A stretch of 64,000 nucleotides of DNA from a virus: IMG/VR virus record IMGVR_UViG_3300045988_087149, positions 1-64,000 of that record; one strand, given 5' to 3'. The notes below the pieces were generated by a model that worked only from the letters and a program-made list of their open reading frames with translations, searched no databases and was not told where the DNA came from. Both the position numbers and the translations under genes were made by a program. Below are positions 16,235-18,428 of the stretch, piece by piece. Position 1 is the stretch's first letter. Each line of letters begins with the position of its first letter.

Positions 16235-16995
16235 TTGGTCTACTAGGCTATAATTTTTGTTCAGATGGCAATGCGCTTGACCCTATGCCAACAAGCGTAA
16301 ATAAAATCACAACGACCACGATTCAGAATGGTATATATGACCATTTCTATGCGGGATATGATGTAACTAGTGAATATAGTCATGCTTTGCCTACTGCATG
16401 GGATTTCAATACCATCATGGATTGTAATTTTGAGAATAATATCTCTGCTGGTAATATTGATGATTTGTCGAGAGATATATCTGGCATTAAAATCAAGCGG
16501 CGCGAGAAGGGTACATTTGACTGGACAACAATCAAGGAAATTGCCGTCACTAGTATTGATGACTTGTCATTTATTTTCACAGATAATCTAGCATCTAACT
16601 ATACTCAGTACGAATACGCCTATGTACCAATCACGGGTCAGACTGAAGGTAGTTATACAGTGTCTGAGGTCTATTCCAAATTCAAGGGCGTATTTATTTG
16701 TGATGTGAATACAATCTATAAATTTTATGCTGATATTGAATATGGCTCGACTGATAGCGTACAGAAAATTGGCACATATGAGCCGTTTGGCAGAAAATAC
16801 CCTGTTATGGTGAGCAATGGCCTACTTGGTTATGATACAGGTACGGTCAGTGCGTTGATTGTGCCTAAGAATTTCTCTGAGACTCATGAATTTGACCGTC
16901 AGGCAATTACCAAAGAGCGCAATACGCTATTTAAGTGGCTGACCAATAAGAAGCCAAAGATGTTAAAAGACTTAACATTTAGGTCGGTTGCATAG
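16231..16995 (+). CDS. minor tail/baseplate protein, exon 1. The ORF as read runs into intron C; the predicted splice is after 16972.
   Basis: ATGA overlap with the previous gene. The ORF ends a few codons inside a group I intron core, and the frame resumes at 18407-18595. Confidence 0.55.
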   Translation: MIGLLGYNFCSDGNALDPMPTSVNKITTTTIQNGIYDHFYAGYDVTSEYSHALPTAWDFNTIMDCNFENNISAGNIDDLSRDISGIKIKRREKGTFDWTTIKEIAVTSIDDLSFIFTDNLASNYTQYEYAYVPITGQTEGSYTVSEVYSKFKGVFICDVNTIYKFYADIEYGSTDSVQKIGTYEPFGRKYPVMVSNGLLGYDTGTVSALIVPKNFSETHEFDRQAITKERNTLFKWLTNKKPKMLKDLTFRSVA

Positions 16996-18428
16996 TAATA
17001 TGCAACAAAAACTATGTATTGAATTGCTGGAAACCCCTAAAGCCATTCGAGCTACAACATAGTCATGAAATATGGACAAGTGTGATATGCAACGAAAGTA
17101 AAAAGAATTGAATGGATGATGTAAGGTTAAATCCTAACCATCGTTATAATGGGCAATCAGCAGCTAAGACCCGAACAGGGTAAAGTTCAACGACTATCCC
17201 GCAAGGGAGTACACTGCAAGCGATTGGCAGTGGAAGTGGTACATTCTTTGATTCAACAAATAACTTGACAATTAAAAAATAAATCTAGAAAGGAGGTTAA
17301 CATATGTTAATACCGGGACAATATACCAAGATGAGATGGCACGCGAGGAACAAATATTATTATATGGAGCGTGGGTATGAGTTTACTAAGATGGGTGATG
17401 AATTTGATGTGAAAGTTGAAGATTTGCCATCTGAGTCTCATGTATATGTAAAGGTGCAGTGTGATTTTTGTGGAGAAATAATTGACGTAAAGTATCAAAA
17501 TTATACTCATCGAGGACTGAAGTCAGATGGATACGCTTGTACAAAATGCAAGTACAAAAAAATACATAATGTAATGCAAGAGGTATATGGCGTTGACGCG
17601 CCGTCACAGATCGATGGATTTTATGAAAAATTTAAAGCAACTTGTCAAGAGAAATATGGAGTAGACCATTATGCCTCAACACAAGAATGCAAAGATAAAA
17701 TTGCTTCAACTTGCATGAAACGATATGAATCTACAAACTATTCATCATCAGATATTGGCAAAGAGCGTATGACGAATATATTTTCAGAAAAGTTTGGAAC
17801 TCCATATCCGTTTGGAAACGAAGAAGTAACAAGAAAACTTGTTGAAACACAAGTCGAAAAATACGGCGGTGTTGGTATGGCGTCTCCATTATTAAGAAAG
17901 AAAATAGAACAAACATGTTTAGATAAGTACGGAACAACAAATTTAGCTCAAGTTCCAGAAATAAATGAGAAGCGAAGAACGACATTATATAAGAATGGAA
18001 CAGCACCATCATCCAAACCGCAGGTTTTATTAAATGATAAATTAAAAGAAATATATGGTAATGCCGAGTTAAACTACCCGTGTGGCAATCTCTCTTTGGA
18101 CTCCATGGTAATTGTTGATGGATGTAAGATAGACGTAGAATACGATTGTTGGTATTGGCATAAAAATAAAAAGAAGCAAGATTATCAACGAGATTGGGTT
18201 GTTAGACAAGCGGGATATAAGGTGCTTAGAGTTAAAGGTTATACAAAAATACCATCAGACGAGCAAATAAAAGAAGCGATTGATTATTTAGTCAAGGATA
18301 ATCATGAGTTTAGTAGAATAATTGTTGAATCAGAGAAAAAGATATAGTCTATACTTATAAGAAATTATAAGATGTCATATAATTTATATGACTGACAAGG
18401 AGGTAGCGTTTCTTGTTGAATATTTTAG
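16973..18428 (+). mobile_element. group I intron C (IA2-like) carrying a homing-endonuclease ORF
   Basis: R box GTTCAACGACTATCC (17185-17199) and S box GATATAGTCT (18341-18350) form P7 GACTA/TAGTC. A P7.1 hairpin TCCCgcaaGGGA and a P7.2 hairpin CACTGC..GCAGTG are present. The core shares extensive identical blocks with intron A. Candidate P1 is GACT (16969-16972) / GGTC (16982-16985) with a U-G wobble. The 3' boundary is uncertain (G18406, 18408 or 18428). Confidence 0.75.
17304..18347 (+). CDS. intron-encoded homing endonuclease, paralogue of 4667-5497
   Basis: 347 aa with AAAGGAGG SD and the same architecture: N-terminal W-H-x-x-N..GY.FTKMGDEF..CDFCG Zn-ribbon, more KYG repeats, and C-terminal IDVEYDCWYWH..D..RD..V..AGYKVLRV. 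Its stop codon TAG (18345-18347) lies inside the S box. Confidence 0.7.
   Translation: MLIPGQYTKMRWHARNKYYYMERGYEFTKMGDEFDVKVEDLPSESHVYVKVQCDFCGEIIDVKYQNYTHRGLKSDGYACTKCKYKKIHNVMQEVYGVDAPSQIDGFYEKFKATCQEKYGVDHYASTQECKDKIASTCMKRYESTNYSSSDIGKERMTNIFSEKFGTPYPFGNEEVTRKLVETQVEKYGGVGMASPLLRKKIEQTCLDKYGTTNLAQVPEINEKRRTTLYKNGTAPSSKPQVLLNDKLKEIYGNAELNYPCGNLSLDSMVIVDGCKIDVEYDCWYWHKNKKKQDYQRDWVVRQAGYKVLRVKGYTKIPSDEQIKEAIDYLVKDNHEFSRIIVESEKKI

Follow-up and report, generated by a model that had tools for sequence, protein, structure and literature searches.

A predicted mobile group I intron in a phage baseplate gene, with a putative endonuclease ORF that ends inside the ribozyme core

A 64,000-nucleotide (nt) stretch of viral DNA (positions 1 to 64,000 of IMG/VR record IMGVR_UViG_3300045988_087149; here called the window) very probably contains, at positions 16973-18428, a real and precisely delimited mobile group I intron of the phage IA type. 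Judged from its homologues and a modelled fold, the interrupted gene is a baseplate/tail-tube-fold gene of a ~100-kb PMBT24-like siphophage of gut Lachnospiraceae. Removal of the intron restores an intact host gene with a product of 302 amino acids (aa), and empty sites exist. The predicted intron carries in its P8 loop an open reading frame (ORF) of 347 aa for a putative homing endonuclease, with its TAG stop codon at 18345-18347. An earlier interpretation made from the letters of the window (the sequence-only reading) had proposed an intron in a tail or baseplate gene at this place; the ORFs, boxes, Shine-Dalgarno (SD)-like motif and TTG codon that it listed were all found where it had placed them.

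The predicted splice junction restores a conserved protein

In the window, an ORF spanning 16231-16995 codes for 254 aa and is closed by a TAG at 16993-16995, and this frame is open again between 18407 and 18595. Joining 16972 to 18429 yields a 909-nt ORF of 302 aa. The predicted ligated exons read ...AAAAGACU|GGAACAG..., which restores Trp248; in nucleotides the predicted junction is AAAAGACT|GGAACAG, and the tryptic peptide across it in the protein would be DWNSSEWLCIITGNPQTDYESNYGMGIQR. The 5' splice site is marked by the U16972-G16982 wobble of P1. A candidate P1 with this wobble had been put forward in the sequence-only reading; it proved right and extends to 7 base pairs (bp). A ribosome reading through from exon 1 translates seven codons of the intron and meets the stop within P2 (16993-16995).

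A search among 5.8 billion proteins for relatives of the spliced protein gave 315, with a top identity of 98%. Most of the best 120 of these 315 (>100) are exactly 302 aa long, all without interruption, and the homologues run KPKMLKD-W-N(S/G)xEWL through the predicted junction with no insertion or deletion (indel). P0002, a protein 98% identical to the predicted spliced product, equals it at ...KPKMLKD-W-NSSEWLCIITG. The donor after T16972 and the terminal omega-G at 18428, as favored in the sequence-only reading, thus give a product collinear with more than 100 homologues and identical to P0002 across the junction.

Comparison with intron-less DNA, which had been suggested as a check, led to the same boundaries. 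The ligated exons and the intron-less loci L005-L007 align collinearly, at 94% identity and with zero indel, and 63 of 63 IMG/VR relatives fetched are uninterrupted at the host gene. Locus L009 is an empty site, ...GCCAAAGATGTTAAAAGACTGGAACAGCTCAG..., in which 20 upstream and 7 downstream bases match the exon flanks of the window exactly. No homologue naturally split at the insertion point without an intron was found among the homologues and the 63 IMG/VR loci examined. A C/T difference at exon position -2 was considered as a marker of intron-bearing alleles and rejected, as L008, L009 and many other empty sites carry C.

The ribozyme core

The R box (GTTCAACGACTATCC) occupies 17185-17199, and the S box (GATATAGTCT) is found at 18341-18350. 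In a permissive search, Rfam model RF00028 matched both halves of the core, at 16963-17250 (37.8 bits, E 1e-7, P1 to P3') and at 18338-18369 (20.6 bits, E 0.016, P7' to P9, the prime denoting the 3' strand of a helix); a permissive Rfam scan of the whole window matched the 5' half alone.

Covariation among four alleles of the intron was too low for use (>95% identity), so a wider family was used instead. A pattern derived from the conserved core retrieved 113 stretches in IMG/VR, and the family alignment comprised 66 sequences, namely 62 non-redundant compact members and 4 introns with P8 ORFs, the present one included, from which the ORF was deleted in silico. RNAalifold predicted 57 pairs in this family, with compensatory changes in 46 of them, and six P7 pairs were added by hand as a pseudoknot to give a named structure of 63 pairs. 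Standard pairs occupy 96.9% of its cells, vs 72.5% after shuffling and 29-40% when partners were slid; the family covariation score is 0.648 vs 0.19, and on every measure 0 of 500 shuffles reached the observed value. The intron in the window has standard pairs at 63/63 consensus positions, and every family-invariant core base is intact.

Details of the individual helices agree with this picture. P7 is canonical, with A17190-U18350, a bulged C17191 and the guanosine-binding pair G17192-C18349. P8 could not be scored in the gappy columns of the family alignment and was judged by hairpin position and shuffles: a hairpin stands exactly at the P8 position in 64 of 66 family members, and the 16 bp of P8 in this intron were reached in none of 5000 shuffles. 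The P8 of the L002 allele has a single A-C mismatch. The 79 nt 3' of P7' fold into three hairpins, P9, P9.1 and P9.2 (RNAfold z = -3.8). P7.1 covaries (helix 16 of the family alignment), and P7.2 (CACUGC/GCAGUG) was read from the sequence and is identical in the intron of the Enterocloster phages described below (L001). P7.1 and P7.2 are generally known as IA-defining helices. Their place between P7 and P3' is a trait of IA-type introns (PMC3984707), and by this token the predicted structure is assigned to IA, perhaps as an IA2-like phage intron. Coordinates are collected in Table 1.

Table 1. Features of the predicted intron and its exons (window coordinates)
Feature	Positions	Strand	Support
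Predicted group I intron, 1,456 nt	16973-18428	+	Partial RF00028 matches; precise absence in L005-L070; family covariation
5' exon (codons 1-247 and first base of Trp248) of the 302-aa baseplate/tail-tube-fold gene	16231-16972	+	Collinear with uninterrupted 302-aa homologues
3' exon (last two bases of Trp248, residues 249-302, stop)	18429-18595	+	Homologue alignment
Omega-G, last intron nucleotide	18428	+	Sole G restoring frame and homologous sequence
P1: GACUUAA 16969-16975 with UUAGGUC 16979-16985	16969-16985	+	cmscan alignment and sequence
P2 hairpin, GUAA loop, holding in-frame stop 16993-16995	16987-17006	+	Covarying helix 1; pairs 16990-16994/16999-17003
P3 5' strand, partner 17238-17243	17015-17020	+	5/6 pairs covary; 6/6 canonical in window
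P4-P5-P5a/b/c-P6 domain	17025-17185	+	Helices 3-14 covary; window pairs
P7 5' strand (A17190, bulged C17191, G17192 to A17196)	17190-17196	+	Invariant 66/66; pairs with 18345-18350
P7.1 (17197-17200/17205-17208, GCAA loop) and P7.2 (17212-17217/17227-17232)	17197-17232	+	Between P7 and P3'
P3 3' strand	17238-17243	+	Family alignment; window pairs
P8 5' strand, 16 bp with 18322-18337	17244-17259	+	Shuffles; family hairpin position
SD AAGGAGG of endonuclease ORF	17290-17296	+	Sequence
Putative homing-endonuclease ORF, 347 aa	17304-18347	+	Pfam, PHROG, 406 homologues, AlphaFold2
P8 3' strand, within ORF (codons I-V-E-S-E-K)	18322-18337	+	P8 pairing
P7 3' strand UAGUCU, with ORF stop UAG 18345-18347	18345-18350	+	Invariant columns 541-546 pair with 337-343; window pairs
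P9 (18354-18371), P9.1 (18374-18392), P9.2 (18394-18417)	18354-18417	+	RNAfold; P9 covaries (helix 17)

The interrupted gene

The assignment of the host gene to the tail or baseplate in the sequence-only reading is borne out by structure and gene order. An AlphaFold2 model was made of P0002 (pLDDT 71; residues 1-75 disordered), and its Foldseek matches are baseplate and tail-tube-fold proteins (probability 1.0, E down to 1.6e-4), including the baseplates of pyocin R2, phiCD508, Mu, diffocin, phi812 and 80alpha. In Enterocloster phage PMBT24, a 100-kb siphovirus and the closest cultured relative, the homologue of the host gene is 46% identical, its neighbors on both sides are annotated "baseplate hub protein," and the tape-measure gene lies upstream.

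The insertion site lies within the best-conserved stretch of the C-terminal third, where L237, N239, K243, K246 and D247 are invariant or nearly so. The 55 residues from the 3' exon include the invariant G284, D291 and G296 and four beta-strands of the modelled fold, and for this reason the truncated 254-aa product is unlikely to be functional. In locus L066 (3001-3558), the match to the host gene is limited to residues 116-301, and that homologue may be truncated or interrupted elsewhere.

The endonuclease ORF

The 347-aa ORF has at its N terminus a Cys4 region that resembles a zinc ribbon, about six helical KYG repeats (DUF7487) and, at its C terminus, a putative Vsr-like/EDxHD nuclease. It matches Pfam DUF7487 (7e-24) and PHROG 12131, "homing endonuclease" (1e-22), and most of its 406 relatives carry PF04480 or PF18741. 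Residues D266, D277, E279, D281, H286, D293 and R296 (IDVEYDCWYWHKNKKKQDYQRD) are invariant in 56 homologues, as are cysteines 53, 56, 79 and 82. The family profile aligns the E/D/H/D/R block to the catalytic domain of I-Bth0305I (3r3p, E 0.022) and to the DUF559 structure 3hrl (E 0.019), both marginally; with phmmer, the ORF had no match among PDB sequences. In the confident AlphaFold2 model (pLDDT 93.7), there are a small beta/zinc-ribbon region, eight helices at regular intervals, which represent the KYG repeats, and a nuclease domain of the alpha/beta type.

The EDxHD family, with I-Bth0305I as its prototype, is set by conserved Vsr catalytic residues (PMC3239194). On account of the invariant block, the profile alignment to 3r3p and 3hrl and the PF04480/PF18741 domains of its homologues, we file the ORF as a putative EDxHD-type, Vsr-like homing endonuclease with a non-prototype DNA-binding region. 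The combination of Cys4, DUF7487 repeats and an EDxHD-type nuclease is an uncharacterized architecture among Vsr-like homing endonucleases, and here the predicted target site is fixed to the base.

A hairpin at 17292-17314 (6+2 bp, -5.4 kcal/mol by RNAfold) overlaps the 3' end of the SD and the AUG. On weak evidence, it may damp translation of the endonuclease, as in I-TevI. A promoter scan of the intron gave 10 hits vs 7.2 in shuffles; in view of this lack of excess, no dedicated promoter is claimed.

Distribution and signs of mobility

The same intron occupies the same site in L002, L003 and, partially, L004, and intron-occupied alleles are a small minority of those sampled. Among these alleles, identity is 94-100% in the ribozyme parts and 91-94% in the ORF, vs 76-79% for exon 1 and 66-74% for the upstream gene; the intron as a whole is at 91-100%, the host gene at about 77%. 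Between the window and L003, identity reaches 94-95% over the 212 nt of exon 1 next to the intron and is 93% in exon 2. Such a rise of exon identity beside the intron is the pattern that co-conversion during homing would leave. The intron being far more identical than the host and upstream genes, the comparison indicates homing and recent transfer, and the intron is probably active and mobile.

Weighing the alternatives

Several observations weigh against an active, mobile group I intron. A search with RF00028, named as a check in the sequence-only reading, found nothing at the gathering score (50 bits) anywhere in the window, because the endonuclease ORF splits the core; below that score, the two halves gave the separate permissive matches above. 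P7 is identical in 66/66 family members, so covariation lends it no support. The P1 loop has just 3 nt, and no convincing P10 pairing between it and the start of the 3' exon (GGAACA) was seen by eye. Closure of P8 spans ~1 kb and overlaps the ORF, which could slow folding. As for the enzyme, the ORF falls below the cut-off for Pfam MTES_1575 and DUF559, and in a Foldseek search with the whole endonuclease model, 3r3p_B is a weak match at rank 33 (TMt 0.50, E 0.26); other nucleases of the PD-(D/E)XK type take the top ranks, with poor TM scores. Finally, a gene caller annotates separate 254-aa and 60-aa ORFs in L003.

One alternative is that the intron splices yet is immobile, with the ORF being an inactive endonuclease or a co-opted maturase; the I-TevIII gene of the T4 nrdB intron is the case to compare. 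Sub-threshold scores for the nuclease domain of this copy would fit such an idea, which we nevertheless regard as unlikely: every allele carries an intact ORF, the catalytic residues invariant in the family are all retained, and the intron is much more conserved than the flanking genes, with an exon identity that climbs near it and points to recent transfer.

Less credible still is a splicing-dead relic, either a decayed intron or a free-standing endonuclease cassette, that has left the gene split into a 254-aa protein and a separately translated 60-aa one. An SD-like AAGGAGG (18397-18403) and a TTG (18413) do precede the 3' piece, the L003 annotation agrees with two ORFs, and the Rfam score is below the gathering threshold. 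We judge it very unlikely, as all family-invariant core bases and 63/63 consensus pairs are intact, the core is 94-100% identical in four alleles, and no homologue examined is split here without an intron. Independent translation of the 3' piece, raised as a caveat in the sequence-only reading, is itself unlikely: the SD-like motif and the TTG are both paired in P9.2, the stretch is conserved as intron, and the first five residues of the 60-aa ORF are intron-coded with no counterpart in homologues, its C-terminal 55 residues being conserved within one protein. That a group I intron has other boundaries, with a donor at T16979 or T16980 and an acceptor at G18406 or G18408 where the frame opens from 18407, is scarcely credible, since these junctions, listed as alternatives in the sequence-only reading, would add ~10 residues (LTF...RFLLNILG) absent in all 302-aa homologues and in the L005-L009 DNA and would place the splice site outside the P1 U-G wobble.

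The ORF extends into the ribozyme core

The last eight codons of the ORF (I-V-E-S-E-K-K-I) and its stop, at 18321-18347, take in the entire P8 3' strand, J8/7 and U18345-A18346-G18347 of P7'. The claim that the endonuclease stop lies inside the P7 3' strand is therefore correct: the TAG provides three of the six invariant bases of that strand, and the overlap between ORF and core structure amounts to 26 nt, counted from the start of P8' (18322). Overlaps of this type are already known, among others from I-TevI (20 nt into P6a/P7) and from the SPO1 HNH ORF in a P8 loop (9 nt) (Edgell, Chalamcharla, Belfort 2011; PMC3073962), and have been explained by "core creep," in which a stop codon is lost and translation reads through to the next stop (PMC3073962). 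The present overlap is an instance of this documented phenomenon, which is not new.

The end points of the ORFs vary within the family, as core creep predicts. Counted after the shared I-D-M/I-I-V anchor, the ORFs of L148 and of a second intron in the window, intron A (see below), have a 2-aa tail and stop 2 nt ahead of P8'; those of the L078 group (six loci) have a 7-aa tail and a TGA at the P8' 3' end/J8/7 start; and those of L102 and of the present intron have a 6-aa tail and stop at the invariant TAG of P7'. The family thus offers a clean natural series of core creep, with stops before P8', at its 3' end and in P7'. Among 118 cores examined, 14 (12 distinct elements) have a large insertion between P7 and P7', 13 of which are P8-loop ORFs ending at or just short of the 3' core; the remaining cores are compact where the S box could be resolved. 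In the divergent family member L102 (1906-3115), a P8 of 12 bp encloses an open frame of 370 codons, which terminates at the TAG of P7' (...NNKKNI*).

It is conceivable, but improbable, that a stop codon in P7', two base pairs from the guanosine-binding pair, is a selected switch and not a passive by-product of core creep. If it were, each ribosome completing the endonuclease ORF would melt P8 and P7, transcripts would be split into those spliced for baseplate protein and those translated for endonuclease, the endonuclease dose would be tied to late structural-gene expression, and the recurrence of TAG in P7' in the divergent L102 would represent convergence, not shared ancestry.

A model for splicing and homing

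The following steps are drawn from established biology of group I introns and homing, i.e., G-dependent two-step splicing, empty-site cleavage and repair, and interference between translation and folding. After transcription, the RNA would fold from P1 to P9.2, and an exogenous G would attack after U16972, held in the P1 U-G wobble. Omega-G18428 would then dock in the G17192-C18349 site of P7, and ligation of the exons would restore Trp248 and the full protein. The endonuclease would cut intron-less alleles near AAGATGTTAAAAGACT|GGAACAG, and recombinational repair would copy the intron and some flanking exon into the cut allele. The ORF has grown by core creep through the P8 3' strand and J8/7 to the UAG of P7'. 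Since a ribosome can complete the ORF only by opening P8 and P7, translation of the endonuclease and splicing of one RNA would be mutually exclusive, and the weak hairpin over the start codon probably keeps that translation low.

Relation to known introns

The intron resembles several known systems in part. Like the T4 td intron with I-TevI, it is a phage IA-type intron with a homing-endonuclease ORF whose 3' end overlaps core helices up to P7 (20 nt in td; PMC3073962) and with a hairpin in the initiation region, which in td limits translation; in td, however, the ORF lies in the P6 loop and codes for a GIY-YIG enzyme, and the host gene is for thymidylate synthase, vs a P8 loop, a Vsr-like enzyme and a baseplate gene here. 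The DNA polymerase intron of Bacillus phages SPO1/SP82 with I-HmuI also has a P8-loop ORF overlapping P8 (9 nt; PMC3073962 Table 1), but its product is an HNH nicking enzyme, its host is a replication gene, and its overlap ends in P8, whereas the 26 nt found here run through J8/7 into P7'. I-Bth0305I, from the recA intron of Bacillus thuringiensis phage 0305phi8-36, shares a Vsr-like catalytic domain with conserved E/D/H/D and the location in a phage group I intron (PMC3239194). It differs in lying in P5 and in its N-terminal NUMOD/helix-turn-helix motifs, where the present P8 ORF has Cys4 and about six DUF7487 KYG repeats; sequence similarity between the two is marginal (E 0.02). In Staphylococcus phage Twort, orf142 is likewise a tail structural gene (tail tube) with introns, several per phage (PMC11878797), but host, endonuclease family and insertion sites are different.

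The core of an intron in the four Enterocloster bolteae phages CB457P2/CB473P1-3 (OP172754 etc.) is 82% identical to 17015-17244 over 230 nt and has the same P7.1/P7.2. Unlike the intron in the window, it has a contiguous core, a compact P8, an I-TevI-like GIY-YIG ORF downstream of P9 and a different host gene, and it scores 95.9 bits with RF00028 (L001), nearly twice the gathering score. This group I intron (L001 5951-6281; OP172754.1 ~8417-8747; likewise in CB473P1-3) was left unannotated in the published genomes. The coding sequences on either side of it in OP172754.1, 00009 and 00011, have each been annotated as a hypothetical protein of its own but probably make up a single split gene.

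Overall, the intron in the window is an unremarkable representative of a familiar class of mobile elements and leaves the current understanding of group I introns unchanged. Surveyed phage introns lie mostly in genes of nucleotide metabolism and replication. The present one is a well-delimited addition from a human-gut siphophage, where it interrupts a structural gene of the tail tip; this baseplate location and the core-creep series are of moderate specialist interest. For annotation, its value lies in explaining why the baseplate gene of this phage lineage (L002, L003) has been wrongly called as a 254-aa ORF, a 60-aa ORF and a "hypothetical protein."

Other elements in the window and its relatives

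The sequence-only reading had counted this intron as the third of its kind in the window, a plausible count. Of the other two, intron A is solid. It lies within 4354-5695, with a core at 4398-4570, an ORF at 4667-5497 and flanking ORFs at 3694-4353 and 5696-6019, and by sequence it belongs to the same family of group I introns. As claimed, the two cores have much in common: 4398-4513 matches 17022-17137 at 75% and 4518-4570 matches 17144-17196 at 77% as direct repeats, and the 12-mer GTTCAACGACTA occurs in the window in these two introns alone (expected 0.17). Intron A forms 63/63 consensus pairs, yet scores 19.9 bits with Rfam. Its 276-aa P8-loop ORF codes for a Vsr-like putative endonuclease, a paralogue of the 347-aa ORF (32-35% identity) with fewer repeats. 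NCBIfam has no name for the endonuclease ORF, the host protein or the intron A ORF.

The supposed intron in the tape-measure gene fares less well, since Rfam does not recognize it. That gene (7860-9042) looks split into a 141-aa ORF (7860-8282), which begins directly after RuvC, where the PMBT24 tape-measure protein (TMP) begins, and a 755-nt insert; residue 146 of the PMBT24 TMP aligns from 9040. At 8286-8470 the insert has P4-P5-like motifs of the intron family, with no RF00028 match and no canonical R or S box, and it may be a divergent or degenerate intron occupying 8286-9039. A tblastn search of phage genomes with the 141-aa ORF found nothing. The insert also holds two overlapping small ORFs for hydrophobic peptides of 75 and 74 aa (8596-9026) and an 85-nt near-perfect hairpin with weak miRNA-family matches (8869-8953). 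In L002, an R-box-like GTTCAAGGACTA at ~1811, near the 3' end of the tape-measure gene, may belong to a further intron, inserted at another site.

Downstream of the intron-bearing gene, 18599-21220 codes for an 873-aa protein (DUF5048; PHROG "tail protein") with an internal duplication (19589-19645/20276-20332). The gene at this place codes for 687 aa in L005 and 489 aa in L002, and the length variation suggests a variable receptor-binding module. In another region of the genome, families of 48-49-nt repeats with a common TATATCAT...TTGTCAA occur at 38495, 39394, 49384, 50755, 52262, 53933 and 59048 and look like a reiterated regulatory or promoter motif.

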